This document shows, piece by piece, positions 27,751 to 43,265 of a stretch of DNA of 64,000 nucleotides. The stretch covers positions 1 to 64,000 of the forward strand of contig JBGTHM010000081.1 in the NCBI GenBank assembly GCA_041746255.1, in the 5' to 3' direction. Made by a program: the position numbers and the translations under genes. The DNA is from Fibrobacteria bacterium (GTDB lineage: Bacteria > Fibrobacterota > Fibrobacteria > UBA11236). The notes below the pieces were generated by a model, which did not search any database, was not told the DNA's origin, and was given only the letters and a program-made list of their open reading frames with translations. Every line of letters starts with the position of its first letter. Within the stretch, counting starts at the first letter, position 1.

Positions 27751-27947
27751 TCCGGAATATTTTGGAAGCTTCGGGGCTCACCTTTTGGCCCGTATTCGCA
27801 ATCCTTGTGTTTAGCGTATTTCTGGTATCGCTGGCGTTGTGGTTATTGCGCTCAGGGGGAACGGAGTTCTACGCCCGCATGGGGAGGATGGTTTTGGATG
27901 AAGACATTCCGGGCGGTAACCGGGAACCGGTAGGAGATGTGCCATGA
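27747..27947 (+). CDS. ccoQ: cbb3 oxidase small subunit CcoQ-like
   Basis: 66 aa single-TM ORF coupled to both neighbours by 4-nt overlaps, between ccoNO and ccoP. Confidence 0.7.
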   Translation: MIRNILEASGLTFWPVFAILVFSVFLVSLALWLLRSGGTEFYARMGRMVLDEDIPGGNREPVGDVP

Positions 27948-28543
27948 AGGATACGCTGCGGGAAGGCCACGATTACGACGGCATAGAAGAATTCGACAAC
28001 CCGTCTCCGAAATGGTTGTTGTATCTGTTTTATGCGAGTATTGTTTTCGCTTTTTGGTACATGGGTTATTATACGGCCAAGGGATACGCATTGGCGCAGG
28101 TCGAAGGGGAAGGCCAGGCGCTCAGTTGGAGCCGGGCGCATTATTTGCAATCGGAGCGCGTCTCAGCGACAAGATTTTCGTCCCTGAAAAAGCCGGAACT
28201 GTCACCGGATGAATTGCGCGCACATCTAAAAAAGCCCGCCGTTATTGCGCATGGCGAGAATGTGTATAAAAGCAATTGCGCCAGTTGCCATGGTGATCAA
28301 GGGCAGGGTCTGGTGGGACCGAATCTGGTGGATGATCATTGGTTGACAGGTGGCCGTCCCGAAGACATTGTGCAGGTGATTTCCACAGGACTGCCCGAAA
28401 AGGGTATGCCCGGTTGGCTTCCCATACTGGGGCAAGACCGGGTCCAGGCCGCCACCGCTTATATCCTAAGCATACGGGGCCGGAAGGTGCCGGGCGCCAA
28501 AGAACCGCAAGGCGAAAAAACTTCGGTACCAGAGGGATGGTAG
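27944..28543 (+). CDS. ccoP: cbb3 oxidase subunit III (monoheme CcoP)
   Basis: GHDYDGIEEFDNP.P.W (FixP N-terminus), a single CASCHG, GPNL.D..W..GG and KGMP.W. Confidence 0.9.
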   Translation: MKDTLREGHDYDGIEEFDNPSPKWLLYLFYASIVFAFWYMGYYTAKGYALAQVEGEGQALSWSRAHYLQSERVSATRFSSLKKPELSPDELRAHLKKPAVIAHGENVYKSNCASCHGDQGQGLVGPNLVDDHWLTGGRPEDIVQVISTGLPEKGMPGWLPILGQDRVQAATAYILSIRGRKVPGAKEPQGEKTSVPEGW

Positions 28544-28547
28544 GGGA

Positions 28548-29954
28548 ATGATATCACCCTTGACCGGCCCGCCCGCTCGGCCCGGAACCAAGGGGCAGTG
28601 GGGGGCCTTTGGACTTTACCCCCGGGAAATAACCGGATTTTTCACCCGCCGTAGAACCGCCGTGGGCTGGGTGCTCATGGTCTTGTTTCTGGGCGTCCCC
28701 TGGCTTAAATGGCAAGGACGGCCTTTTTTACTCTTCGATGTATTCGGGCGAAAATTGAATATCGGCCCCTGGGAATTCTGGCCGCAAGATGTCCGGTTGT
28801 TCCTCCCCGCCGTGTTGGCTTTCGTTTTAGGGATATTTTTCGTGACGGCTAGGTACGGTCGAATATGGTGCGGCTGGGCCTGTCCGCAAACCGTCTTTTT
28901 GCAATTCCTCTTCGCTCCCTTAGAACGGTTACTGGAGGGCCGTTCCTCTGTGCGGCGCAAGCGCGACGGCGAGGGTTTTACCTGGAATCGGGGCGCACGT
29001 AAAATCCTCAAGCATGGAATCTTCCTCGTGTTGGCCGTTATCATCGGAAATTCCGCTTTGGCCTATTTTTGGGGCATGCACAATTTACTCTGGGCCTTGC
29101 AACGTCCGCCTTCCGAGAATTGGGCCGGGTTTGTTTTCATGGGAGGGTTTTCCCTGGCATTTTATTTCGTCTTCGCTTGGTTCAAGGAAAAGGCTTGTAC
29201 CATCGTCTGTCCTTACGCCAAATTTCAGAGCGTGCTTACCGATAGGCGCAGTTTGGTTATCGCCTATGACCCGGGAAGGGGAGAGGCGCGCGGCAAAGCC
29301 AAGGGTAGAGTGCGCGAGGGGTTGGGCGATTGCGTGGATTGCGGATTCTGCGTGCAGGTCTGTCCTACCGGCATAGACATTCGCGATGGGCAACAGCTGG
29401 AATGTATCGGGTGCGCGCGTTGCCTGGATGCCTGCGATAAAATCATGGACGCCTGGAAAATGCCGCGGGGATTGGTGCGGTACGCCACTCTGAACGAGTT
29501 GGAGGGCGAAAAGTCGCGGGGTATCGCCTGGAGGCCTTGGATTTACGGAGCCTTGTCGTTGGGTCTGGCGGTGGTTTTTTTTGCGATTGTCTTGGGTCGG
29601 CCGCCATTTTCCGTGGATGCGAAGCGTATAGGGAGCGAGCCTTTCCTAATCCGGGATGACGGCGCGGTTACCAATCATTTCTCTCTTAAAGTGCATAACA
29701 ATGATAACGTACGGCACATTTACCGGATTATCCTGCTCCAGGCCGCCGATTTCCGGCATAATTGGGAGAGCCGCGACTTTGCGGTGGGCGCGGGACAGAA
29801 TGCGGAAATTCCCATCGATATCATCGTTCCCGAGGGAGCGATAACCGGGGGCAAACGGGAAATCGCCATACGTATCCACTCCGATGGCCATGCCACCCAA
29901 AAAAAAGTTTACCTGATGGGTCCTGAAAAAAGGAAGAACACTCATGAAAAATGA
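28548..29954 (+). CDS. ccoG: cbb3 accessory 4Fe-4S protein CcoG/FixG
   Basis: GRIWCGWACPQTV, C...CPY, CVDCGFCVQVCPTGIDIR and CIGCARCLDAC. Confidence 0.95.
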   Translation: MISPLTGPPARPGTKGQWGAFGLYPREITGFFTRRRTAVGWVLMVLFLGVPWLKWQGRPFLLFDVFGRKLNIGPWEFWPQDVRLFLPAVLAFVLGIFFVTARYGRIWCGWACPQTVFLQFLFAPLERLLEGRSSVRRKRDGEGFTWNRGARKILKHGIFLVLAVIIGNSALAYFWGMHNLLWALQRPPSENWAGFVFMGGFSLAFYFVFAWFKEKACTIVCPYAKFQSVLTDRRSLVIAYDPGRGEARGKAKGRVREGLGDCVDCGFCVQVCPTGIDIRDGQQLECIGCARCLDACDKIMDAWKMPRGLVRYATLNELEGEKSRGIAWRPWIYGALSLGLAVVFFAIVLGRPPFSVDAKRIGSEPFLIRDDGAVTNHFSLKVHNNDNVRHIYRIILLQAADFRHNWESRDFAVGAGQNAEIPIDIIVPEGAITGGKREIAIRIHSDGHATQKKVYLMGPEKRKNTHEK

Positions 29955-30459
29955 ATCGGGAGCGGAAACCCTTTCCCCCATCCCCTCACGTGGTGGAAGT
30001 TGGCTATGGGGCGTGGGAGGTTTTGTTCTCATCGTCCTTTCCGCCAATTCCGTTTTGGTATACCATGCGGTGTCTTCGCATCGACCGTTGGTGCGAGATG
30101 ATTATTATTCCGCGAGCCTGATATATGATGATATTCGGGAGCAACGCCTGCGTGCGGATACCTCCAATTTTATCTGGGATTTGGAAAAGGCGCAAGAAGG
30201 TTGGCAATTGCGTTTGCAAGCCTCCGAAGAACCGCTTGCCTTTCAGGGAGTCCTTCGCTTCTATCGCCCTTCGGATCAATCCCTCGACCGTGAAGTGAAA
30301 ATCCGCTATATGGGCTGGAACGAAAGCGAGGGTTTTGCCTTATACCTAGGTGAGACGGCTCCTTTGGCCCGAGGAGCCTGGGAAATCCAGGTGAGTTTGA
30401 CCGATGATCGGGGTATCAGCATGGAAAAGATATTCCACCGCTTTTTGGAGGAAGGTTGA
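29944..30459 (+). CDS. ccoH: CcoH/FixH family protein
   Basis: N-terminal TM, LVRDDYY, FYRPSDQSLD and G.W, in the expected cluster position. Confidence 0.8.
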   Translation: MKNESGAETLSPIPSRGGSWLWGVGGFVLIVLSANSVLVYHAVSSHRPLVRDDYYSASLIYDDIREQRLRADTSNFIWDLEKAQEGWQLRLQASEEPLAFQGVLRFYRPSDQSLDREVKIRYMGWNESEGFALYLGETAPLARGAWEIQVSLTDDRGISMEKIFHRFLEEG

Positions 30460-30460
30460 G

Positions 30461-32914
30461 ATGATCGCCCGGACGCCCGCGATTTCCTGTTTGCATTGCG
30501 GACAGGATTTGCTGCATTCTCGCCATGAAAACGAGGCGGGCGAATGGTTCTGCTGCCTGGGTTGTTTGCATGTCAACGAATTGCTTGCCGGAAAGGAATG
30601 GAGCCCTTATTACGAACTATTGGAAGCTTCGGGGAAGAAGCCTCCCACAGGTGTCACCGTGGCCGATGCAGAGTTCGCGGAATGGCAGGACCAGGAACAA
30701 CTTGTTTCTCTGGGGCAATGGACCGGCTCCTTGCACCGGTTGGAATTGGGCAGCCCCGACATTTCCTGCGCCGCTTGCGGTTGGTTGCTGGAAAAGGTTT
30801 TACCCGAAGCCGGCGCCCAATATGTCCGGGTGGATTTTTTGCGCGGTCGACTCGAAATCGAATACGATTCGGAGCAAACCAGTCTACGAAAACTGGTTGA
30901 GCGAGCGGCCCGTTTAGGCTATCGTCTGGCCGTGGCTAACCCCGTAGGCGGAGGTTCGTCCTCCGATCGCAGTCATGCGGCCCGGCTGGCCGTATCCGGC
31001 GCCATCTTCGCGAATGTGATGTCCTTTTCACTAGCGCATTATTTCGGGCTTTTTTCAGGTATCGAACCTTCCTGGGTTGCCTTTTTCGGAATTTACGCCT
31101 TCATCCTGACTTTGCCCGCGGTGACTTATTGTGCTTGGCCTTTCTATCGTCGGGCCATTTACGGTATGTGTCATGGAATTTACCATCTCGATACCACCGT
31201 ATCACTGGGCATCTTGATTACCTTCGCGGTTTCGGTAGCTTCCATGGCGAGAGGCCATCTCTTCAATTATTTCGATAGCGTTACCGGATTAATTTTCTTT
31301 CTCCTCATAGGCCGCTGGGCCGTGCGTCGTTTCGAATCCGGTTTGGCCTTCGATTCGGGCTGGACGGGTATCATGCCGGAGGGACGAACCCGCTGTTTGC
31401 GCGATTCGCGGTGGGAGTGGGTTCCCACGGAAACCGTAGCGCAGGGTGAAACGATTGTGGTTTTTTCCGGAGAGACCCTTCCCTTAGATGGAAACCTGCT
31501 TTCCGCAAGCGCCCAATTGGATACCAGCTTATTAACGGGAGAAGCCCGACCAGCCGCTTTGGAGCGAGGCGCGCAGGTTTTCGCGGGGTATAGGAATACC
31601 GGCGGGAAAATCGAAATCGAAGTGAGCGCCACGCTGGCGGAGTCGCGCCTGCAAGGATTACGGAAACAAATCGAAACCTTGCAGGCGGAAAAGTCGAACC
31701 GGCCTTCGCGAGGAGATAAGGTGGCGGCGGCATTTACCCTGGTGATTCTGACTTTGGCCGTGTCCGCGTTTTTCCTGCATTGGAACAGCGGGATTTTCGC
31801 AGCCCTGCTGATTACGGCCAGCGTGCTAATCGTTTCCTGCGCCTGCGCTTTTGCCCTGGCGGTTCCCATCAATTTGGGATTGGGCCTCAAGCGCGCTCGC
31901 GAGTTGGGATTCCATCTTCGCAACGGAGAAGTCCTCCGCGGCTTGGCTCGCGTCCGCTTCGTCCTGTTCGATAAAACGGGAACACTCACCTTCGTCAAGC
32001 GACGTCTGCGGGCTTGGCATTGGTTGGGAGGTTTTACCTCTCGCACCTTCCAAGCAGCATTACTGCCGTCGCTTAAAGCGTTATGTATCGCAACCACACA
32101 TCCCGTGGCGGTGAGTTTGCGTGATTCCCTGCGGGAAACCGATGCTTCCCGGGTAGAGCTCGAAGGGCTGCGGGAAATCCTGCACTTTGGCATGGTCGCG
32201 CGGGAGAAATACGGGGCGCGGCGGGAAATCTGCCTTTGCCGTTATGCCGCATGGAGCGAAAAGCCCGAGACCTTCCTGAAATTAGGCTATTCGCTTCCCG
32301 ACACGGCATCGCTGGAAGCCGGCGCGATGCATCCGGATTCGGCCCTATTTGTAGATGGGGTATTGGCGGCGGTTATTTCTTTCACGGAAGAAATCAAACC
32401 CGGCGTTTCCAGGCTGAACCGGAAACTCGAGACCATGGGAATCGGTAAGACCCTTTTATCCGGAGATCATCCCAAGCGTGTCGCAGCCTTCGCGGAAACG
32501 GCCGGTTTTTCGGAGTTTAAAGGTGGACTCAGTCCCGAGGAAAAACGCGAGGAAGCCCAGTCTCTCCGGATGCGTCATGGAAACTGCCTGGCGGTCGGCG
32601 ATGGCTTCAACGATAGCCTGTTATTCGGCGAAGCGGATTGGGGGTTGGCCATTGCGGGTCCCGCCGACTTTCTCACCGAACAGGCCGATATACTTTTCAC
32701 GGGAGAAGACCCTTCCGCCATAGCGGATCTGCTGGGATTGGCGCGCCGGGTGCGCAGCGGTATCATTTTGGCTTACGGGCTTTCCTTCACCTACAACGCG
32801 GCCGCTTTAACATTGGCGTTTCAGGGTTTGGTGACACCGCTATTGGCCGCCGTGCTCATGCCCTTGAGTAGCCTTACTTTGTGCTTGGCTGCTTGGTTAC
32901 GCATTGGGCGTTAG
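30461..32914 (+). CDS. ccoI: Heavy-metal (Cu) P1B-type ATPase CcoI/FixI
   Basis: CLHCG..FCC.GC N-terminal domain, HMA CAAC, LTGE, DKTGT, HP and GDGFND. The TM motif is CAC rather than CPC. Confidence 0.9.
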   Translation: MIARTPAISCLHCGQDLLHSRHENEAGEWFCCLGCLHVNELLAGKEWSPYYELLEASGKKPPTGVTVADAEFAEWQDQEQLVSLGQWTGSLHRLELGSPDISCAACGWLLEKVLPEAGAQYVRVDFLRGRLEIEYDSEQTSLRKLVERAARLGYRLAVANPVGGGSSSDRSHAARLAVSGAIFANVMSFSLAHYFGLFSGIEPSWVAFFGIYAFILTLPAVTYCAWPFYRRAIYGMCHGIYHLDTTVSLGILITFAVSVASMARGHLFNYFDSVTGLIFFLLIGRWAVRRFESGLAFDSGWTGIMPEGRTRCLRDSRWEWVPTETVAQGETIVVFSGETLPLDGNLLSASAQLDTSLLTGEARPAALERGAQVFAGYRNTGGKIEIEVSATLAESRLQGLRKQIETLQAEKSNRPSRGDKVAAAFTLVILTLAVSAFFLHWNSGIFAALLITASVLIVSCACAFALAVPINLGLGLKRARELGFHLRNGEVLRGLARVRFVLFDKTGTLTFVKRRLRAWHWLGGFTSRTFQAALLPSLKALCIATTHPVAVSLRDSLRETDASRVELEGLREILHFGMVAREKYGARREICLCRYAAWSEKPETFLKLGYSLPDTASLEAGAMHPDSALFVDGVLAAVISFTEEIKPGVSRLNRKLETMGIGKTLLSGDHPKRVAAFAETAGFSEFKGGLSPEEKREEAQSLRMRHGNCLAVGDGFNDSLLFGEADWGLAIAGPADFLTEQADILFTGEDPSAIADLLGLARRVRSGIILAYGLSFTYNAAALTLAFQGLVTPLLAAVLMPLSSLTLCLAAWLRIGR

Positions 32915-32963
32915 CGTAACCTGTGTAATTTCGTCACTTTTTACCTCTTCAAATTCGCCAAGG

Positions 32964-33086
32964 CTAAACGCATCCGATTTCAGTCCATTCGTGGAAAAGG
33001 GGGGACTGGGAAAGGCTTGGCAGCTATTCGGGGACGGAATGGACACCCTGCTAGATGAAGTAAATAACCGGCTTTTGGCCTGCTAA
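32964..33086 (+). pseudogene. hsdR: C-terminal remnant of a type I restriction endonuclease HsdR (EcoEI R C-terminal-like)
   Basis: The translation DFSPFVEKGGLGKAWQLFGDGMDTLLDEVNNRLLA* resembles the PF...GGLGK..QLFG......ELN..L.A terminus I recall for EcoEI-type HsdR. The rest of the gene is absent. Confidence 0.65.
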
Positions 33087-33348
33087 GCGCATCTGACTTG
33101 GGATTGACTGCCAAAATTTTGGGTCAACCTGAGATTTATAGCTGAATTCGGAAAGTTTCCCCGAAATATTCATTCTATTATTGCGGCTATCAACGAAATT
33201 TTCAGTCGAAAATCTCGGTTTCGTGATTACCCCGAAGAATATCGGAGAGCCTTTGAGGTTTCAAGGTGGAAAAAAATGAAGGAGAGTTCCGGGGACAGTT
33301 TTTGTCATATGATGTATTTAGTTTTGGCATTAAAGGGCAAATCTACCG

Positions 33349-34290
33349 ATGTTTTATAGACGCAAAATAATCTTGGCCCTGCTTCAAGCATGGGATAACC
33401 AGTTGTCAAATACAGATTTTCAAAAAATTCTATTCTTGCTTTCCAAGAAGCAGGAGACGCCCTCTTTCGAATTTGTTCCCTACAAGTTCGGCTGCTTTTC
33501 CTGGCAATCGTATGCGGATAAAAGAACCATGACCGGTTATGGGCAACTGGGGGAAAAGGACGATTGGCAGAAAGCCTGTAACGAGGACTATCTTGCCCAG
33601 ATTTCCGAGGCTGATAGGGCCAGCATTCTGGATCTGATTAGGGAAATCGGGAGCCTAGGCGGAAAGGAACTTATCCGCTATGTATACCTGAAGTATCCGT
33701 ACTATGCGATTAAAAGCGAAATAGCCGCGAAAATGATGAGCAAAAGTGAGTTGGATGCCATTGCCAAGGAAATGCCGGTCGATGAATCCATAACCCTCTT
33801 TACAATCGGATACGAAGGGATATCCTTCGATGGGTTTTTGAATGTGCTGATAAAAAACAATGTGCGGGTATTATGCGATGTCCGAAAAAATCCCTTGAGT
33901 ATGAAGTACGGTTTTTCCAAGAACCAATTGAAGGGTGCGCTCACGGAGTTGGGAATCCGCTATTTGCATATTCCAGAGCTTGGTATTTCGTCGGATAAAC
34001 GCCAGAACCTCTCCTCAAGCAAGGATTATGAGATTCTTTTCGAGAAATATGAGAAAACTACCTTGCGACTTCAAAAACCATTTATTGAAAAAATCATGGA
34101 CACTCTGGAGTCGGAAAAAAGAGTCGCTTTGATGTGCTTCGAAAAGAATCCTTGCATGTGCCACCGGGGACGTTTGGCGAACGCGCTTGCCGAACTTTCC
34201 CGTTTTCATTACTCCTTGGCTCATATCGGGAATGGACATGAAAAAAAGAATTCTCATAACGGTCAAAACTTATCCGACCTTTTCGGATAA
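33349..34290 (+). CDS. DUF488 domain protein with an N-terminal wHTH (Panacea/SocA-like) domain
   Basis: C-terminal half: LFTIGYEG, LCDVRKNPLS.K.GFSK, Y.H.PELG and ALMCFE....CHR (DUF488). N-terminal half: FQKILFLL...FEFVPYKFGCFS. Confidence 0.8.
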   Translation: MFYRRKIILALLQAWDNQLSNTDFQKILFLLSKKQETPSFEFVPYKFGCFSWQSYADKRTMTGYGQLGEKDDWQKACNEDYLAQISEADRASILDLIREIGSLGGKELIRYVYLKYPYYAIKSEIAAKMMSKSELDAIAKEMPVDESITLFTIGYEGISFDGFLNVLIKNNVRVLCDVRKNPLSMKYGFSKNQLKGALTELGIRYLHIPELGISSDKRQNLSSSKDYEILFEKYEKTTLRLQKPFIEKIMDTLESEKRVALMCFEKNPCMCHRGRLANALAELSRFHYSLAHIGNGHEKKNSHNGQNLSDLFG

Positions 34291-35044
34291 GTACGAGGAA
34301 TTGGTTTGTACTGCAGGATTCACCGAAGCCGGCGAGTGGATTCGTATCTACCCGGTCCCCTACCGGAAACTGGATTTTGGCAGTCAATACAGCAAGTATG
34401 CATGGGTCGAGCTTGACCTGGTTAAAAATACCGAGGATCCACGCCCCGAATCCTGGCGTCCGACAAACCGGGATGACATAAAGATTGTCGGCAGGATCGA
34501 TACCAGTAACGGCCTGTGGACGGCAAGAAAAGCCATTGTATTGAAAGAGGTTCACACCTCGATGGCTACTTTGATAGCGGATGCAAAAAATCCGGATATC
34601 GCCACTTCCTTGGCTGTTTTCAAACCTAAAAAGGTCCATGATTTCATCTGGGAGGAAGAGCAGGAGAAGGAATGGGATAAGGAAAAGCTATCCATCCTTC
34701 AGCAGGGGAACCTGTTCGAAGAAAAGGGCGCTGAATTCAAAGTGGTTCGGAAGCTGCCTTTCAAATTCAAATACGTTTTTGAATCCGAGTCCGGAAGTAT
34801 CCACAAATTAATGATCGAGGACTGGGAATTGGGTGCCTTATTTTGGAAGGGGTTGGAAAAGACTCAGGATGGAGCGAAAGCATGTGAATACGTCCGTGCA
34901 AAATATTTTGATGCATTCGTTAAAAAGCACGACCTGTATTTTTTCCTGGGTACGACCAAGCTCTGGCATTTCCGGGCACCCAATCCATTTATAATCATTG
35001 GTACCTTTCATCCACTGGCGGATCCTCAAATGACGCTGCTTTGA
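34238..35044 (+). CDS. Uncharacterised DUF488 partner protein (possibly dual-OB-fold-like)
   Basis: Intact 268 aa ORF overlapping the DUF488 gene, with VKTYP..S.KY.E.VCTAG....GEWIRIYP, D.RPES, IEDWE.G.L and FFLGT. Confidence 0.75.
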   Translation: MKKRILITVKTYPTFSDKYEELVCTAGFTEAGEWIRIYPVPYRKLDFGSQYSKYAWVELDLVKNTEDPRPESWRPTNRDDIKIVGRIDTSNGLWTARKAIVLKEVHTSMATLIADAKNPDIATSLAVFKPKKVHDFIWEEEQEKEWDKEKLSILQQGNLFEEKGAEFKVVRKLPFKFKYVFESESGSIHKLMIEDWELGALFWKGLEKTQDGAKACEYVRAKYFDAFVKKHDLYFFLGTTKLWHFRAPNPFIIIGTFHPLADPQMTLL

Positions 35045-35101
35045 TATTATGGCCCAGCAACCTCATCCAAGCATTCTTCAAATATGAATTCTATTAAAAT
35101 A

Positions 35102-35239
35102 ATGGCTACCTGCGATGTGCATACCCTTCTTCGATTGCCGACAGGATCATTCTATGCCCAGTGCGTTAATGTTGAGAACCTGGAGGCGGGGTTGAACAGT
35201 TTCAAGGAGGTTATTGCTTCCTTGAACTGGAAAGCGTAG
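35102..35239 (+). pseudogene. hsdM: Internally deleted remnant of a type I methyltransferase HsdM
   Basis: My translation (below the ORF-track cutoff) is MATCDVHTLLRLPTGSFYAQCVN-VENLEAGLNSFKEVIASLNWKA*. This joins an HsdM core motif (CDLHT.LRLPTG.FYAQGV) directly to an HsdM C-terminal helix (ENLEAGL.SF.E). Confidence 0.7.
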
Positions 35240-35252
35240 TTCGATAGGATTT

Positions 35253-37058
35253 TCACCTCTTACCTGCACAAGAGTAGAGGAATACCGGAGAGTTCTCCAC
35301 AATAATCTCGCAGGCGCCTTCCCGCGCAAGTCGAAACACCTCTTCGAAATAAACCGTGTCGGACAAGCCTTTATACGCCGCATCCTGGATATGCGAGTAA
35401 TGTTCCCGGTAATTGGTGTCCAACAGTAGATAGCCGCCAAAGCTTGGGGATAAACCATGGGGGAAGAGTTGCAGGTCTCTTCTGTTTGTCAGGTGGAGGG
35501 CGGTGTGGCCTTGGGCGATGACTGGGGCTCCGGCAGGGACACTCCGCACCGCAGCCGCCAGTTTTTCCGCTTTTGCGCTGACGGAATACCTTTCCTCCTT
35601 TACTTTCCAAAAACGAAGCGATAGGGGAGATTCCCCGCATACGACTCCGAACATAAGGGTGGCAAATAGCATGGATAGCGCGGTTTTTGCCCGCTTTTCA
35701 GTGGAAAAATTCTTCATGTGAATCACAATCAAATAAAACATCAAAGCCATCGGAGCCACCCAATGGTGGTTGTGCAGGTAAAAATCGCCGTACAATTCCT
35801 TGAAAAGAAAAAGGGACAGTACGAAAAGATATGCGGGCCTCAGGATGGGGATGAAGAGCAGCGGCGCCAGCAAAAAAAGTGCGTTTTCCCAATTCCGGAA
35901 TGTCCATACTTGTTCAAGTACCTTCAAGGGATTAAACAGAATGTAGTTGACCATGGCCATCAGGGAGGCCGGCTCTCCGCCCATGTTATAAAGCGTGCCC
36001 AAGGCCTCGCTGGCTTTTCCCTGATTGAAGTGCGGGATGATCCAAATCATGGATACCAGGAAATACCCCGCCGCCAGGCATAGGAGAAGGGCGTGAAAAC
36101 GAATTCGTTCCGGCTTGACCCGTATAAACCATATCAATAATGGTATCAGGCCTAGAGAGATGTGCTCCTTGGTGGATAGTGCTAGCAGGAAGAACAACAA
36201 GGCGGGGAAGTTTCTACCGAGATGCATGTAATAGAGGAATCCGAGAATAAACCCTCCGGCCAGCACGTCGGAATGAAAATCGTAGAGAAGTCCGTAGTGC
36301 ACCGTGAAGTTGAGTAAAAAAGCCAGGACGATCACACCAACAATGTTTCCATCGCCGGACCAAAGTAGTTCTCCCAGGCGGAACAGGTAGTAGGCGGCCA
36401 TCAAAACCGAAGCGGTGGCGATGAAGTATAGGGTCGCGGGGGAGGGTAGGATCGCGAATGGAAGAGCGAGCAGGTAGAGAATCGGGGACGCATGATCCGC
36501 CCATTGACTGCCGTATCCGCCTGCGATGAGGGCCATCTCCAGGGGGACGCCTTGTATCGTATTCCACAAAGGGTGTAGGTAATAACCCAGATCCATCCAG
36601 TTGCTGTAATAACCACGGAATTTTAGGTGGGGGAGATAGGTGAAGACAAAGAGATAAAGCGATCCCAGTAATGCAATGACGCCGACAGGGGGAATTCCCA
36701 GGGGAAGTTTCCGAGCCAATCCTTGCCCCAGAGAAAATGCCAGGGAAAGAATCATGCAGGTCAGGAGCATTGGGTTGATGAATTGGGGAGGGAGAGGAAA
36801 CTGACGCAGCCATAATCCGGCGAGAGAGAGGGAAAAGAGGAGAACGAAAGTTTTGGGGCCGGAAGGGAATGTTCTGTATTTCGCCAGCTCGGATATTATC
36901 AGGATTATCACTACCCATGGTAGGGAGGCAGAGAGAATGGAGGGAATGGTGGCCGAGAATTTGGTGAAAACGATATTACTTAGGCCCAAAAGCAGGTATA
37001 GGAAGACTCTCACCGGGTAGTGGTCATCGAATCTCCTTGAAAAAAAGGGGGGCGTCAT
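35253..37058 (-). CDS. DUF2079 family membrane protein (putative GT-C glycosyltransferase)
   Basis: Multi-TM protein with DLGYY, DHASPIL, YDFHSD and LSTKE, and a C-terminal soluble domain (VPAGAPV.A...HL..R). Confidence 0.7.
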   Translation of the reverse strand: MTPPFFSRRFDDHYPVRVFLYLLLGLSNIVFTKFSATIPSILSASLPWVVIILIISELAKYRTFPSGPKTFVLLFSLSLAGLWLRQFPLPPQFINPMLLTCMILSLAFSLGQGLARKLPLGIPPVGVIALLGSLYLFVFTYLPHLKFRGYYSNWMDLGYYLHPLWNTIQGVPLEMALIAGGYGSQWADHASPILYLLALPFAILPSPATLYFIATASVLMAAYYLFRLGELLWSGDGNIVGVIVLAFLLNFTVHYGLLYDFHSDVLAGGFILGFLYYMHLGRNFPALLFFLLALSTKEHISLGLIPLLIWFIRVKPERIRFHALLLCLAAGYFLVSMIWIIPHFNQGKASEALGTLYNMGGEPASLMAMVNYILFNPLKVLEQVWTFRNWENALFLLAPLLFIPILRPAYLFVLSLFLFKELYGDFYLHNHHWVAPMALMFYLIVIHMKNFSTEKRAKTALSMLFATLMFGVVCGESPLSLRFWKVKEERYSVSAKAEKLAAAVRSVPAGAPVIAQGHTALHLTNRRDLQLFPHGLSPSFGGYLLLDTNYREHYSHIQDAAYKGLSDTVYFEEVFRLAREGACEIIVENSPVFLYSCAGKR

Positions 37059-37179
37059 TCCTTGCCCATTATACCCTATCTACCTTAGCGAAAATCCCGG
37101 AAACCCCCTAATGTCCCGAGGAGTGTTAAATTGTTTCCAGGCAACCAAGGGTTTTTCAGTCCAGAGGCAAAGTCACCCC

Positions 37180-39264
37180 ATGTCCGAATTCAATAAACTC
37201 ACCGGTGTCGGCCCCAAGCGAAGGAAGGTGCTCGAAGCCGCGGGAATTTTGACCCTACGGGATTTGATTTATCATCTACCCCGTAAATACCTGGATCGAA
37301 CAAAGCTTAAACGCATCGATGAGTTAAGGGTGGGAGAGGACGCCCTTTTCACCGGTGAGGTAGTCCGGGTGGAAGAAGCCTATAACCGCTTGACCGTGTA
37401 TGTCCGCGACGATTCGGGCATGATTCCCTTGGTCTATTTCAACGGCGTGCAATTTCTCCGCAAAAAATTCGCAGAAGGCCGGGTATTGGCGATTGCCGGA
37501 ACTCCCGGATTTTTCCGCGAGGATTTGCAATTGGTGCACCCCGAAACTGATCCTGTGCAACCCGGCGAGGTTGTAAAAGGCTATGTTCTGCCGCGTTATC
37601 CTCTCACCGAAGAAATGGCGGCGGCGCATGTGGAGCATAAATTTCTGCAACGTATCATTCTGGAAGCCTTGGAAAATTTCACCTTCTCGGATCCGATTCC
37701 CGAGGAATTGCACGAAGCGCTGAACCTGGTCCCGGAAATCGATTTACTGCGCGAATTACACGCTCCGGAATCGCTGGAAAACCATGCCGAGCTTCGGCGA
37801 CAGCTCAAATGCCGGGAGCTATTCCCCTTTTCCCTGCGCTTGGAACGGAGGCGATTCGACCGCCTCAAAGTCGGGCGGACCTGGAAACCGGACGCTGCGC
37901 TCACGGCAAAACTCATGGCAGCCCTCCCTTTCGAACTGACCGGCGGTCAACGCCAGGTTATTGCGGAATTGTCCGCCAGCCTGGAAAAACCCCATCAAAT
38001 TCAAGGTTTATTGCAGGGCGATGTCGGCAGCGGGAAAACCGTGGTCTGCCTGTTGGGCGCCGCATCGGTACTCGCTGGGGGTGGTCAAGTCGTCCTTATG
38101 GCACCCACCGAAATTTTGGCCGTACAACATCGGCAAACCTTGGAGCCTTTTTTACGAAGCTCAGGGATCACCTTCGCTTTGTTGATCGGCGATACCCCGC
38201 GGGAAGAGCGGGAGACGATGTTACGGAATTTGCAGGAAGGTAAATTGCAATTCCTGATCGGTACCCATGCCGTTTTCTCGCCGGATGTAAGTTACACCCG
38301 CCTGGGATTAGTCATCATCGACGAGCAGCATCGTTTCGGTGTGGAGCAGCGCGCGAAGCTTATGCAAAAGGGAGATTTCCCCGACGTACTCTACATGTCG
38401 GCCACGCCCATACCGCGCACTTTGGCGCATACGGTTTATGGTGACCTGGAAATGTTCCTGCTGAAAGAGAAACCGAAATACCGTCTCCCCATCAAAACCC
38501 GCATCGTGCCTCCCGCCAAACGCGCCGACATGCTCAATTTTTTGCTCAAAGAAGTACGGGAGGGAAACCAAGTATTCTGGGTGGTTCCGCAAATCGGAGC
38601 TAGAGAGACCCGGAATGAAGATGAAGGCGATGCAGCCGTTGCCTTCAGTTCCAAAGAGGATGTTTGGAATCCCAACCTATTGGACAAGGAAGAAGAAGAC
38701 CTCCTCTCGGTGGAAAGACTGGTGAAAGAGGTGGCTTCGTTTTCCACGCAGTGGAAGGTAGGCTACGTGCATGGCCGCTTGTCCAGCACCGATAAAGAGT
38801 CCGCACTGGCTGACTTTCGTGCAGGCAGGCTGCAAGTATTAGTTGCGACCACTGTGATTGAAGTGGGTATCGACGTGCCGCAGGCCAATCTGATTATCAT
38901 TGAGCATGGCGATCGTTTCGGCCTGGCCCAATTGCACCAATTGCGGGGGCGTACGGGGCGGGGCGCACAACAGGCCTGGTGCTTTCTACCGGAACCTGAA
39001 AAGCCTTGGCCCCCCGAAACAGCGGAAAGATTGCAGCGGTTTTGTGAAACCGAAGATGGATTCGCCATAGCGGAAATGGATTTCGAGTTCCGCGGTGCCG
39101 GAAATTTGACTGGCAGTAATCAATCGGGTTTTGATGGTTTACGCTTCACTGATTTACGAAGCGATTTCCCCTTAATCCAATCGGTGCGGGAATTAGCCCG
39201 CGAAGTGCTTGAAGGGCGCAAAGTCGTATCCTCCGAAACCCTGAATCGCTTCGCATTGAACTGA
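37180..39264 (+). CDS. recG: ATP-dependent DNA helicase RecG
   Basis: GVGPKR, LPFELT..Q, QGDVGSGKT, DEQHRF, SATPIPRTL, QLHQLRGR.GRG and RG.G.L.G..QSG. Confidence 0.95.
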   Translation: MSEFNKLTGVGPKRRKVLEAAGILTLRDLIYHLPRKYLDRTKLKRIDELRVGEDALFTGEVVRVEEAYNRLTVYVRDDSGMIPLVYFNGVQFLRKKFAEGRVLAIAGTPGFFREDLQLVHPETDPVQPGEVVKGYVLPRYPLTEEMAAAHVEHKFLQRIILEALENFTFSDPIPEELHEALNLVPEIDLLRELHAPESLENHAELRRQLKCRELFPFSLRLERRRFDRLKVGRTWKPDAALTAKLMAALPFELTGGQRQVIAELSASLEKPHQIQGLLQGDVGSGKTVVCLLGAASVLAGGGQVVLMAPTEILAVQHRQTLEPFLRSSGITFALLIGDTPREERETMLRNLQEGKLQFLIGTHAVFSPDVSYTRLGLVIIDEQHRFGVEQRAKLMQKGDFPDVLYMSATPIPRTLAHTVYGDLEMFLLKEKPKYRLPIKTRIVPPAKRADMLNFLLKEVREGNQVFWVVPQIGARETRNEDEGDAAVAFSSKEDVWNPNLLDKEEEDLLSVERLVKEVASFSTQWKVGYVHGRLSSTDKESALADFRAGRLQVLVATTVIEVGIDVPQANLIIIEHGDRFGLAQLHQLRGRTGRGAQQAWCFLPEPEKPWPPETAERLQRFCETEDGFAIAEMDFEFRGAGNLTGSNQSGFDGLRFTDLRSDFPLIQSVRELAREVLEGRKVVSSETLNRFALN

Positions 39265-39269
39265 TTCCT

Positions 39270-39938
39270 ATGCTTGAATTGGTGATATTCGATTGCGATG
39301 GAGTGCTGGTCGACTCGGAGCGCATCGGCATTTCCATTTTCCATAAGCACCTTGAGAGCTTGGGAGTGACGATGTCCCTGCAAGAGGCCATTGAGATTTT
39401 CAAAGGGAGATCTGAAAAAGATTGCACCGCCGTCATCGAAACCCTGACGGGAAATCCACTCTCCCCGGATTTTTTTCCGCGCTGCCTTACCGAAACTTTC
39501 GCGCGTTTCGAAAGGGAATTGCAGCCCATTCCCGGTATAATTCCGGCGCTGAAAACCATTCAACAAAAAATCTGCGTAGCCTCCAGCGGCACCCACGAAA
39601 AAATGGCGGTAACCCTCAGGGTAACGGGTCTGCTACCTTTTTTCGCCGGAAGGATTTTCAGCGCTACCCAAGTCGCCAAAGGAAAGCCTCATCCGGATCT
39701 ATTCCTATTTGCCGCGCGGAGTATGGGCATCGCCCCCGAAAATTGCCTGGTGGTGGAAGACTCGGTTCCCGGCATAAAAGCCGCCCGCACCGCCGGTATG
39801 TCCGCCATTGGATATGCCGACCTCACCGAGGCGAAAGACCTGAAAAATGCCGGCGCGCATCGGGTTATTACCGATATGGAGCAATTATCGCCTTTGCTTT
39901 CGCATTTCCGGGAAATTCATGCACCTATAGGCCCCTGA
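39270..39938 (+). CDS. HAD-superfamily hydrolase (YieH/CbbY-like)
   Basis: FDCDGVLVDSE, ASSG, KPHPD and VEDS..G. Confidence 0.9.
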   Translation: MLELVIFDCDGVLVDSERIGISIFHKHLESLGVTMSLQEAIEIFKGRSEKDCTAVIETLTGNPLSPDFFPRCLTETFARFERELQPIPGIIPALKTIQQKICVASSGTHEKMAVTLRVTGLLPFFAGRIFSATQVAKGKPHPDLFLFAARSMGIAPENCLVVEDSVPGIKAARTAGMSAIGYADLTEAKDLKNAGAHRVITDMEQLSPLLSHFREIHAPIGP

Positions 39939-40010
39939 ATGTGATTTCGGCGGTCCACCTTTTGCTACCTTTGGCCCCGTCCTCCCGAATTTTTACCCAG
40001 TAGAGCTAAA

Positions 40011-43000
40011 ATGCCCAAAAGAACCGACCTTAAAAAAATCATGCTTATCGGCAGCGGGCCTATCACCATAGGTCAAGGCTGTGAATTCGACTACTCCGGC
40101 ACCCAGGCCTGCAAAGCCTTACGCGAAGAAGGTTTTCAGGTCGTTCTGGTCAATTCCAATCCCGCCACCATCATGACCGATCCCGACGTGGCCGACGCCA
40201 CCTATGTCGAGCCCATTACCTGGGAAATTTGCGAAAAAATCATCGCCAAAGAGCGCCCGGACGCCTTGCTCCCTACCGTAGGGGGCCAAACGGGTCTCAA
40301 TACCGCCATGGACCTGGCCAAGCACGGCGTACTGGAAAAATATGGCGTGGAATTGATAGGCGCCAACCTGGAGGCCATCAATAAAGCCGAATCGCGCCGC
40401 GCCTTCAAGGCGGCGATGAACAAAATCGGCATCGACACGCCGCGATCCATTGTAGCCAACAATATGGAAGAGGCCCGCCAGGCCATCACCGAAATCGGCC
40501 TTCCCCTGGTGGTCCGTCCCGCCTATACCCTGGGCGGTGCCGGAGGCGGGTTCGCTTTCACCGAAGAAGAATACCTCCGTATCGTCAAACATGGCCTGGA
40601 ACTCAGCCCCACCTCCGAATGCCTCATCGAAGAATCCATTCTCGGATGGAAGGAATACGAGATGGAGGTGATGCGCGACAAGGCCGATAACGTGGTCATT
40701 ATCTGCTCCATCGAAAATATCGACGCCATGGGCATCCATACCGGTGATTCGGTAACCGTAGCTCCGGCGCAAACCTTGACGGATAAAGAGTACCAGCGCA
40801 TGCGCGACGCCAGCATCGCCTGCATACGCGAAATCGGAGTCGAAACCGGCGGATCCAACGTGCAATTCGCCGTCAACCCCGAAGACGGGCGCATGATTAT
40901 CATCGAAATGAATCCCCGCGTTTCCCGCAGTTCGGCGTTGGCCAGTAAGGCAACCGGATTTCCCATCGCGAAAATCGCCGCCAAGCTGGCCGTCGGTTAT
41001 ACGCTCGACGAATTGCTCAACGATATCACGCGCGTTACCCCGGCGTGCTTCGAGCCCACCATCGATTACGTGGTCACCAAGGTACCGCGCTTTACCTTCG
41101 AGAAATTTCCGCAGGCCGAGGCCGTACTCGGCACACAGATGAAGTCGGTGGGCGAAGCCATGGCCATGGGACGCACTTTTAAGGAGTCGCTGCAAAAGGC
41201 GATGCGTTCCCTGGAAATCGGCCGCTACGGTCTCGGCGCCGACGGCAAGCAGGAAGTGCCCGATAATCGCATCGACGCGCGGCTTGATTATAAACGGCCG
41301 GGCATCAATCGTTTGCTGGTTATCAAGCGTGCCTTTGAGCTGGGCTATAGTGTCGAAAAGCTGTTCGAACTCTCCAAGGTCGATCCCTGGTTTCTCAATG
41401 AAATCAAAGACCTCGCCGATTTTGAAAAGAGTGAAATCCAGGGAAAGAACCTGGAAAACCTCGACAAGGATACCTTGGTCAAGGCCAAACGCTGGGGCTA
41501 TTCCGATTATCAATTGGGATTTTTATTGGGCGTGCGCGAAAACGACGTGCGCGAAAAGCGTAAAGCCATGAATGTGATTCCGGTGTACAAAACCGTGGAT
41601 ACTTGCGCGGCCGAGTTCAAAGCCTTCACGCCTTACCACTATTCTACTTATGAGGAGGAGAACGAAAGCGTCCGCTCCGATAAGAAAAAAGTGGTTATCG
41701 TGGGCGGCGGACCCAACCGTATCGGGCAGGGCATCGAATTCGACTATGCCTGCTGCCAGGCGGCTTTCGCCCTCAAGGAAGAAGGCTATGAGGCCATCAT
41801 GGTCAATTCCAATCCCGAAACGGTGAGCACCGATTACGACACTTCGGATAAACTTTATTTCGAACCCTTGACCCGCGAAGACATTCTCAACATCCTCGAC
41901 CAGGAAAAACCGGACGGCATCATCCTGCAATTCGGCGGGCAGACTCCGCTCAAATTGGCCAAGGCCTTGGAAGCCGCAGGCGCTCCTATTTTGGGAACCT
42001 CTCCATCGGCTATCGATGCCGCGGAAGATCGCGAACAATTCTCCGCCCTCATCGATAGGCTCGGTCTAAGGCAACCCCCCAACGGTTTGGCCACCACCCT
42101 GGAACAGGCGGCGGAAATTGCCGACCGCATTACTTATCCGGTGCTCATGCGCCCTTCCTTCGTGCTGGGCGGCCGGGCCATGATGATAGTCTATGACCGC
42201 GATGAATTACGCAATTATATGGAAAACGCCATCGAGGTTTCCGAAGACCGGCCGGTGCTTATCGACAAGTTTCTCGAAGACGCCCTGGAACTGGACGTAG
42301 ACGCCATCTCGGACGGTACGGACGTGGTGGTCGGCGGTATCATGCAGCATATCGAAGAAGCCGGAATTCACTCCGGCGATTCAGCTTGCAGTCTGCCTCC
42401 GCAAACCCTATCTCCCGAAGTGGAAGCCGAGCTTTGTCGGCAAACCGAAATGCTGTCGCGTGAGCTGGGTGTTGTGGGGCTCATGAACATTCAGTTCGCC
42501 ATCAAGGGCAACAAGGTTTTTGTACTGGAAGTCAATCCCCGCGGGAGCCGCACCGTTCCCTTCGTCAGTAAAACGACCGGTGTGGCCTTGACCAAATTGG
42601 CTACCAAGGTATTGGTGGGGAGGAATTTACGCGATTTGAATTTTACCCAACGAGTGGTCCCCCCCTATGTGGCGGTCAAGGAAAGCGTTTTTCCCTTCGC
42701 CAAATTCCACGGGGTGGATACCGTTCTCAGTCCGGAAATGAAATCAACCGGCGAAGTCATGGGATTGGACATCCGCTTCGATCTCGCTTTCGCCAAAGCG
42801 CAAATGGCTGCGGGAAATTCGCTTCCCAAAGGTGGCCGTGTTTTCATTTCGGTCAATAACCGCGACAAAGGCGCTATCGTCGACACCGCCCGACGCCTCC
42901 ACGATCTCGGTTTCGAAATTTGGGCGACGGCGGGAACGGCGGCCGCGCTCGACCAGGCTTCGATTCCCAGCAAGGTGGTAAAGAAGGTTTCGGAAGGGGA

Positions 43001-43265
43001 ACCCAACGTTTCCGACCTGATCGGCAGTCGGTTCTTCTCCCTGCTTATCAATACGCCATTGGATAAAACTTCGAAATTCGATGACGCCATCATCCGTAAG
43101 GGCGCCTTGCTGGCGCAAATACCCTATACCACGACGCTTCCCGCCGCCAATGCCGTAGTGGACGGAATCGGGGCCCTACGCCGTCAGGAATTGGAAGTTC
43201 GGCCGTTGCAGGAATATTACCGGGAATTGAGTCTTCCGGAAATTCCGGTCGCGGCGCTTCGCTAG
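40011..43265 (+). CDS. carB: Carbamoyl-phosphate synthase large subunit
   Basis: [44 protein letters not shown] and a C-terminal MGS domain. Confidence 0.98.

Follow-up and report, generated by a model that had tools for sequence, protein, structure and literature searches.

PDC-M19, a candidate anti-phage cassette of a DUF488 protein and a predicted tandem OB-fold partner, stands intact among restriction-modification remnants in a Fibrobacteria bacterium

What are the two small intact genes that lie between scraps of a type I restriction-modification (RM) locus in a Fibrobacteria bacterium, and what might they do? The pair, here genes A and B, belongs to a 64,000-nucleotide (nt) stretch that was analysed as a whole and is called the window below (positions 1 to 64,000 of contig JBGTHM010000081.1, assembly GCA_041746255.1). 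Profile matching identifies the locus as the candidate anti-phage cassette PDC-M19, present here in intact form. Gene A matches the PADLOC model PDC-M19A (PDLC04505) at E = 1.4e-118, with residues 1–293 on profile positions 1–294 of 294, and gene B matches PDC-M19B (PDLC04508) at E = 1.5e-115 over profile positions 3–268 of 269; the two genes are adjacent, on the same strand and in the order A then B. PADLOC was used for matches to its hidden Markov models. According to the preprint of Payne et al. (bioRxiv 10.1101/2024.01.29.577857), PDC is short for “phage defence candidate”, a collection of 145 untested candidates, of one gene or several, added to PADLOC and drawn by a guilt-by-embedding screen from genes that lie within type I RM, BREX or DISARM loci.

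This identification changes the standing of the original prediction, made from the letters of the window and a list of its open reading frames (ORFs), which had proposed an undescribed defence or toxin-antitoxin (TA) system. Because both proteins match the catalogued PDC-M19 over their full length, the cassette is not undescribed, and these end-to-end matches attach an already named system to the pair. Among the checks that had been suggested, those on co-occurrence (77/77 evaluable loci) and on selection (dN/dS far below 1) came out in favour of a genuine module, while the match to a named system took away the novelty. The second gene had been left with no assignable function; a structural model, Foldseek, VIA-align and hhalign now point to a tandem OB-fold protein resembling the Pfam family DuOB.

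The proteins of the cassette

Gene A combines a DUF488 domain with an N-terminal domain of recurrent but weak antitoxin-like appearance, as had been anticipated. Its architecture comprises an N-domain (residues ~1–150), DUF488 (residues 161–280) and a C-terminal tail of 20 amino acids (aa) that overlaps gene B. Pfam DUF488 (PF04343) is matched at nt 33829–34188 over profile positions 3–121 of 121, with 97.5 bits against a cut-off of 22.2. Across 61 homologs, the invariant residues of this domain are D177, R179, S184, K186, C263, F264, E265, C271, H272 and R273, and the conserved set of the N-domain is Q25, K26, F42, P44, G48, S51, D57, Y113, P117 and Y118. Pfam DUF488-N3a (PF22751) stays below its cut-off in gene A (22 bits against 27, profile positions 64–116 only) and is matched at E ≤ 1 by all 61 homologs (best 4.3e-7). 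Burroughs and Aravind reportedly placed DUF488 in the Rhodanese-phosphatase superfamily in 2023 and predicted a role in DNA-end processing, and the Pfam names DuOB and DUF488-N3a/i probably go back to the same work. One account of that superfamily describes its members as enzymes that work without a metal and accept terminal phosphates on a cysteine of the active site (PMC9503650). A sequence search of the PDB with gene A returned nothing at E ≤ 0.3, with no solved relative of DUF488 found by sequence, and none of the surveyed titles of papers mentioning DUF488 concerned defence.

The resemblance of the N-domain to antitoxin domains appears repeatedly and always below threshold. Residues 4–76 match DarG models at E = 0.0022 (PADLOC) and 0.007 (NCBIfam), in the part of DarG just past the macrodomain; the DarG equivalog (NF048014) scores 15.7 bits against a cut-off of 250, with residues 12–75 on DarG positions 180–243, and gene A has no Macro match. 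SocA_Panacea (PF13274) gives no match at E ≤ 1 in the gene A of the window and is found at E ≤ 1 in 22/61 homologs (best 0.0019, all sub-threshold), and a protein atlas lead to this family scores just 0.81. Since every DarG and Panacea match is sub-threshold, we speak of a weak likeness that recurs and do not count the N-domain as a member of either family. With residues 1–150 as query, 529 proteins were retrieved at E ≤ 1e-3, and all 120 of those listed carry DUF488. Residues 28–126 (33430–33726) also match the C-terminus of the PADLOC model for type I specificity subunits (positions 437–548 of 554, E = 6e-4), so some HsdS proteins may carry the N-domain of gene A as a fusion.

Gene B belongs to a large and highly conserved family. 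We found 7646 proteins at E ≤ 1e-3 among near-length candidates, and the family has 2070 cluster representatives at the 50% level; the 120 homologs listed have no Pfam domain and are named “hypothetical protein” at most. Invariant positions among 28 sequences are K10-T-Y-P13, V23-C-T-A-G27, W34, R36, P39, D67, R69, E71 and E194-D-W-E197, of which R36, D67, R69 and W196 are invariant in 124 sequences as well. The motifs quoted in the original prediction coincide with invariant columns of both families (alignments of 61, 28 and 124 sequences).

In structural modelling, gene B folds with high confidence as a tandem OB-fold protein. An AlphaFold2 model built on the 124-sequence alignment (pLDDT 94.2, pTM 0.91) has two beta-barrel halves and a helical insert at residues 196–230; an alignment-free model (pLDDT 35) was set aside. 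The top Foldseek matches in the PDB are all tandem-OB DNA binders, namely RPA70 (E = 7e-5), HIN-200 (probability 1.0), TEBP-alpha, CST and Teb1. VIA-align, which is independent of Foldseek, gives the AIM2 HIN domain as its best match (Z 5.9, root-mean-square deviation 6.8 Å over 173 residues) and RPA at Z 5.7, and a library of viral structures yields the baculovirus single-stranded DNA (ssDNA)-binding protein LEF-3. By sequence, a PDB search with gene B found nothing at E ≤ 0.3. Judged by this model, gene B probably binds DNA.

Profile comparison places gene B as a distant relative of DuOB. A protein atlas lead from gene B to DuOB scores 0.83, and hhalign of gene B against an alignment of DuOB domains gives a probability of 78% and E = 1.9e-5 over 187 columns, pairing VCTAG with CVAG and WIRIYP with WVRPVS, together with two acidic positions. 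Gene B homologs of a phage and of an archaeal plasmid match DuOB directly (E = 0.002), and 2 of the 124 gene B homologs match it at E ≤ 1; in the source genome, a search gave no DuOB match.

The neighbours of DuOB itself connect the cassette to a second catalogued candidate. The DuOB domains used for hhalign came from 10 Fibrobacterota loci (10/296 genomes with a match). DuOB adjoins both a DUF488 gene and a DUF488-N3a gene in 4/4 loci scanned with Pfam (L087, L088, L090, L096); judged by N-terminal sequences, L091–L093 look alike with both DUF488-type genes and L089 shows one, and no DUF488-type gene was found in the 1.5-kb flanks of DuOB in L094 and L095. The trios of L087 and L090 are PADLOC PDC-M45A/B/C. 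Because DuOB partners DUF488 genes and the trio is PDC-M45, we regard PDC-M19 and PDC-M45 as sister systems. In all three long proteins scanned, DuOB is fused N-terminally to a RecQ-type helicase (DEAD, Helicase_C, RecQ_Zn_bind, RQC), and the helicase part in L090 scores best against the PADLOC defence helicase models DpdF and PsyrT. At the level of domain profiles, then, PDC-M19 and PDC-M45 are variants on a common theme, the pairing of DUF488 with a DuOB-type protein, with ties to DNA helicases. The helicase-fused DuOB proteins measure ~700–1000 aa (L090, L092 and L094; by size also L089, L091, L093 and L095). In L087 (401–3592), the PDC-M45 trio of DuOB and two DUF488 genes directly adjoins cas1 and cas2.

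Linkage, selection and genomic setting

Genes A and B form a tightly linked pair wherever linkage can be evaluated. A scan of the genome collection confirmed at least 580 stretches with gene B, and the best 80 were kept for locus work; as the best-scoring stretches were retained, this sample leans to close relatives. In 77/80 loci the gene immediately upstream of B, in the same orientation, is a gene A homolog, and in the other three (L017, L020, L044) gene B begins within 30 nt of a contig end; hence A accompanies B in 77/77 evaluable loci. Two of the 77 have a damaged gene A, which is split into two frames in L009 and represented by the DUF488 half alone in L060. Of the 73 loci measured, 71 have a spacing of -1 to +6 nt between the A stop and the B ATG. 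One 595-aa protein (P0391) is a fusion of A and B, both full-length; this may be an error, since it is a single cluster with one member.

Both genes evolve under purifying selection at the level of the family. Ratios of nonsynonymous to synonymous substitution (dN/dS) were calculated by the Nei-Gojobori method for locus pairs with dS < 2, and in the 25 pairs printed for each gene (of 50 for A and 59 for B) they range over 0.036–0.147 for gene A and 0.019–0.145 for gene B. Strict co-occurrence and these family-level ratios bear out the earlier description of a self-contained module. Between L004 and L006/L007, gene B is 97% and gene A 85% identical in amino acid sequence (dN 0.021 against 0.095).

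Defence genes, type I RM genes among them, recur beside the cassette. Neighbouring ORFs of 120 aa or more were predicted with our own crude caller, and Pfam scans covered the nearest two on either side (E ≤ 1e-5 for L001–L040, E ≤ 1e-8 for L041–L080); three loci with no neighbours were dropped, leaving 77, and the sorting into Pfam classes is our own. Some of these loci are not independent (L006/L007, L022/L023, L001/L005/L073). Type I RM genes lie within two ORFs in 10/77 loci (L004, L006, L007, L032, L053, L063, L075, L076, L077, L080), other RM-type or BREX-like genes in eight (L002, L027, L035, L043, L062, L067, L069, L072) and abortive infection (Abi), TA or ABC-ATPase types in five (L020, L029, L042, L045, L054). 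Any RM, Abi or TA gene is thus found within two ORFs in 23/77, a raw count with no control gene set and so not a measure of enrichment. The position inside type I RM loci described for the window recurs elsewhere, with intact parallels in L063 (hsdR-A-B-hsdS-SIR2_2), L075 (AAA_21-RloB-A-B-DUF559-hsdM) and L076 (hsdR tail-A-B). Other neighbours include a Macro-domain gene (L011:6384–6914, E = 5.6e-49) directly upstream of gene A, after a cation-efflux gene; in L050 a cation-efflux gene of the same cluster is directly upstream of gene A, and the caller placed no Macro ORF of 120 aa or longer between the two.

Distant gene B homologs (~30% identity) also travel on mobile elements. They were found on 22 plasmids, of which 11 are typed as conjugative, Sulfolobus conjugative plasmids included, and in seven records of Gordonia temperate phages, by the immunity repressor and near the integrase. 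DUF488 is annotated beside gene B in 5/8 plasmid or phage loci inspected (H22, H26, H27, H28, H36). In H28 and H36, on Rhizobium and Streptomyces plasmids, the DUF488 gene is short, has no N-domain and is convergent to gene B, and is therefore not co-transcribed with it. The remaining three of the eight (phage Nymphadora, Sulfolobus pSOG2 and Calothrix) have no annotated DUF488 beside gene B. In Nymphadora (genes 44 and 43, L098:3024–4828), the homolog of gene B matches PADLOC PDC-M19B at E = 2.5e-48. It overlaps the immunity repressor, a 316-aa helix-turn-helix (HTH) protein, at the stop of that gene, and belongs to the lysogeny module, with the integrase nearby and cro on the opposite side. 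We considered the Gordonia immunity repressor as a gene A homolog and rejected it (hhalign probability 0.07, no PADLOC match).

The Fibrobacteria locus

In the window, the cassette fills most of a short AT-richer islet (Table 1). As the original prediction had stated, two intact, overlapping ORFs of lower GC content are bracketed by hsdR and hsdM remnants, with solid support for the latter and moderate support for the former. GC content is 0.427–0.477 in 400-nt windows over 33000–35199, against 0.50–0.59 in both flanks.

Table 1. Features of the PDC-M19 locus, in positions of the window
Feature	Position	Strand	Evidence or boundary
Low-GC islet, ~2.3 kb	32915..35252	.	ccoI-like P-type ATPase stop (30404..32914) to convergent membrane-protein gene stop (35253..37058, -)
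Putative hsdR C-terminal remnant, last ~35-55 codons only	32919..33086	+	Pfam EcoEI_R_C and tblastn
Spacer upstream of gene A, 262 nt	33087..33348	+	Expected promoter place
Gene A (PDC-M19A), 313 aa	33349..34290	+	PADLOC PDLC04505, Pfam DUF488
Gene B (PDC-M19B), 268 aa	34238..35044	+	PADLOC PDLC04508, AlphaFold2 model
A/B overlap, 53 nt	34238..34290	+	Start at ATG 34238
Internal hsdM fragment, 27 codons, within 51-codon ORF 35084..35239	35096..35176	+	PADLOC MTase_I and tblastn

The open frame of gene B extends over 34187..35044, and its likely start is the ATG at 34238 (MKKRILITVKTYP), with GGGA 6 nt upstream and ATG 34232 as an alternative. The PADLOC profile sets in at residue 19–20 of the long ORF, the onset of the family alignment agrees with ATG 34238, and the nearest gene B relative (P0002, 79% identical) begins MKKR, in line with that start. 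The overlap between the genes arises because gene A carries its C-terminal tail; gene A is similarly long in its nearest relatives, P0272 (315 aa, 71% identical) and P0274 (314 aa), the latter of which also aligns over the tail. Within the overlap, at the start of gene B, seven A stand in a row (34240–34246), where slippage might conceivably shift the frame of the gene A tail. The cassette of the window retains every family-invariant residue.

The bracketing ORFs point to a type I RM system of which little is left. Downstream, the ORF matches PADLOC MTase_I at E = 2.4e-8 over 27 residues (profile positions 323–349 of 487), and tblastn found 33 plasmid records; among the 10 listed, eight annotations read N-6 DNA methylase, and the remaining two are a class I SAM-dependent DNA methyltransferase and an unannotated match. 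Its assignment as a piece of hsdM is well supported by these matches. Upstream, a 60-codon ORF (32904..33086) matches Pfam EcoEI_R_C at E = 0.0025 (18.4 bits, below the 24-bit cut-off, profile positions 130–162 of 163) and, by tblastn, four plasmid records at E = 5e-5 to 4e-3; 2/4 of these fall under a DEAD/DEAH helicase annotation, one of which also lists restriction subunit S there. Its reading as the tail of hsdR is moderately supported. No intact type I RM system is present at the locus: hsdR is reduced to a tail of ~55 codons and hsdM to a piece of 27 codons, and no hsdS was seen. A Pfam N6_Mtase search of the whole source genome gave a single weak match, on another contig, and hence no intact hsdM with this query.

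The simplest reading of this history is that a type I RM locus with embedded A and B arrived by transfer and then lost its hsd genes by deletion. We propose transfer because GC content is low and the cassette is absent from relatives: gene B occurs in 2/41 related genomes, the source genome included, and was not found in the same-genus genome searched. In that genome (G001), DNA similarity ends at 32918, at the ccoI stop, and a different gene follows; recG lies on other contigs, so synteny with G001 could not fix the insertion boundaries. Its intactness suggests that the window copy may have remained under selection once the RM system had decayed. Decay is seen elsewhere too, in the host system of L032, where an hsdS fragment lies beside A-B, and in the cassettes of L009 and L060.

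Scans for regulatory and mobile signals around the pair were largely negative. Promoter and terminator scans did no better than on shuffled sequence, and an Rfam scan of 32800–35400 gave only a chance-level Ysr283 match (20 bits against 58), with nothing in the spacer. A 17-nt direct repeat (33164–33180 and 35080–35096, 88% identical) brackets the cassette and was discarded, being about what chance would give in a 3.2-kb AT-richer stretch by a rough estimate. The spacer stretch 33139–33289 is single-copy in the source genome; a 151-nt contig identical to it, at depth 27, is present in run X3, from a different study of a hydrothermal vent metagenome, and contigs of the probable source run break at 33192–33264. 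When contigs of three DNA runs were aligned to the window, we found no joint that skips the islet. The flanks look like core genes (27944–32914 and 37111–43265, translations judged by eye), with cbb3 oxidase maturation genes (ccoP-, ccoG- and FixH-like and the ccoI-like P-type ATPase) upstream and recG, a HAD hydrolase gene and carB downstream.

Proposed role and known systems

We favour the view, at a probability of about 0.6, that PDC-M19 is a DNA-directed conflict module. In this mechanism, gene B would bind single strands or ends of DNA that is invading or being replicated, and the DUF488 domain of gene A would use its cysteine to transfer or hydrolyse phosphoryl groups at a nucleic-acid terminus or adduct offered by gene B. 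The N-domain of gene A would tether or restrain gene B, and the pair would serve as an accessory defence module able to outlive the RM system that carried it. The broader proposal made for the pair at the outset, defence or TA, is plausible.

A number of observations weigh against a DNA-directed conflict module. We found no published experiment on PDC-M19, and the name is absent from the searched literature. Structural matches of gene B are modest (TM 0.25–0.45; Z < 6, the “common” range of the tool), and we assign the OB fold because these matches are uniform, not because they are strong. A shared OB fold, even if the model is right, would by itself give no function. Gene B may moreover be an enzyme, beyond a binder, given the invariant D67, E71, E194, D195, E197 and C24. 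The gene B of the window has no Pfam match at E ≤ 1 and misses the DuOB (PF22557) cut-off, which is why we call it DuOB-like and not a Pfam member. The dN/dS values describe selection on the family, at other loci rather than on the window copy, and no sigma-70-like site was found on the + strand in the 262-nt spacer upstream of gene A. Finally, 54/77 loci have no RM, Abi or TA gene within two ORFs, and many of these lie among metabolic genes, some by transposases, a group II intron or prophage genes.

The rival explanations differ mainly in how they read the partner proteins and the neighbourhoods. There is some chance that A and B are a DarTG-like TA pair, in which gene B would be a DNA-directed toxin that sequesters or alters ssDNA and gene A a two-layer antitoxin whose N-domain binds B and whose DUF488 reverses the damage, defence coming about through abortive infection, with which this explanation is compatible. 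The DarG matches at residues 4–76 and the SocA_Panacea matches in 22/61 homologs (best E = 0.0019) fit such an antitoxin, as do the tight coupling or overlap of the genes, the single A-B fusion and the greater conservation of gene B than of gene A (97% against 85% between L004 and L006). Gordonia phages, with their 316-aa HTH immunity repressor ahead of B in the place of A, likewise suggest a regulator or neutraliser paired with an effector. All these domain matches are nevertheless far below cut-offs (DarG 15.7 against 250 bits), and the gene A of the window has no Panacea match at E ≤ 1; the DUF488 partner on the Rhizobium and Streptomyces plasmids is short, convergent and devoid of the N-domain, and the DUF488 partners in PDC-M45 likewise have no gene A N-domain. 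A separate and bolder reading covers PDC-M19 and PDC-M45 together: since gene B has an invariant Cys, Arg and acidic cluster, partly at positions common to both families, a catalytic tandem OB protein might cap or modify ssDNA or ends and DUF488 install or remove a phosphate-linked group, in a DarTG-like write-and-erase defence by phosphoryl transfer and not ADP-ribosylation. We regard this as speculative.

Other explanations dispense with a conflict role. It is improbable that the cassette is a DNA-repair or end-processing accessory working alongside RecQ-type helicases, a role to which the fusion of DuOB to RecQ-type helicase domains would be suited. The 54/77 loci lacking RM, Abi or TA genes, many with housekeeping or metabolic neighbours, and the photolyase or glycosylase-type H2TH gene that adjoins L030 and L023 also fit a repair accessory. 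Its patchy spread (2/41 related genomes), the low-GC islet, its presence on plasmids and in a prophage immunity region and its repeated embedding in RM loci are harder to reconcile with repair, as is the fact that the best-scoring models for the DuOB-fused RecQ part are those of the defence helicases DpdF and PsyrT. We consider it very improbable that PDC-M19 is an establishment or anti-restriction factor of mobile elements, an SSB-like protein with an enzyme, for which RM loci are mere insertion hotspots. Gene B homologs on 22 plasmids (11 conjugative, Sulfolobus included) and in temperate phages, and a fold like that of single-strand-binding proteins, are what this would predict; most close homologs, however, are chromosomal, alone and far from transfer genes, and the phage copy sits in the lysogeny module by the repressor, not among early leading-region genes. 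Defence genes of prophages usually sit in the lysogeny module beside the repressor.

The instance itself is ordinary; the family is large and conserved. Relative to the searched literature, the new anatomy comprises the predicted OB/DuOB nature of gene B, the kinship of PDC-M19 with PDC-M45 and the occurrence on plasmids and in a prophage immunity region. Because the family is so large and highly conserved, one bench study could assign function to two widespread domain families of unknown function. Recognising a supposed novel system as a catalogued candidate saves effort, and the window copy illustrates how an embedded cassette can persist past the loss of its host RM system.

Comparison with known systems sets the pair in context. 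Like PrrC and RloC, it can be found as an accessory unit in the midst of hsd genes (L063, L075), and L075 has an AAA_21-RloB pair beside A-B; A and B are unrelated to these proteins, with no ABC ATPase or anticodon nuclease domain in either by Pfam and PADLOC. DarTG likewise has an enzymatic and a DarG-C/Panacea-like domain in one protein beside a putative DNA-directed partner, whereas the window pair has no macrodomain or ADP-ribosyltransferase, its domain order is reversed and its matches are sub-threshold. The two consecutive OB barrels of RPA70 DBD-A/B, HIN-200 (AIM2/IFI16) and telomere end-binding proteins resemble nearly the whole gene B model, at an identity of 7–13% and with the TM and Z values given above. 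Gene B differs from classical ssDNA-binding proteins (SSBs) in its helical insert and its invariant acidic and Cys residues; to our knowledge, classical SSBs have no insert or invariant residues of this kind. PDC-M45 (DuOB, DUF488 and DUF488-N3a) shares with gene B and its partner an OB-pair protein with Cys-x-A-G and W-x-R-P beside DUF488 enzymes, and differs in having two short DUF488 paralogs with no N-domain and a DuOB that is often helicase-fused. From PDC-M19 the window departs in that its RM genes are reduced to scraps and the tail of A overlaps B by 53 nt against the usual -1 to +6 nt; it agrees in the full-length A and B matches, the same-strand A-then-B order and the type I RM setting in which the PDCs were discovered.

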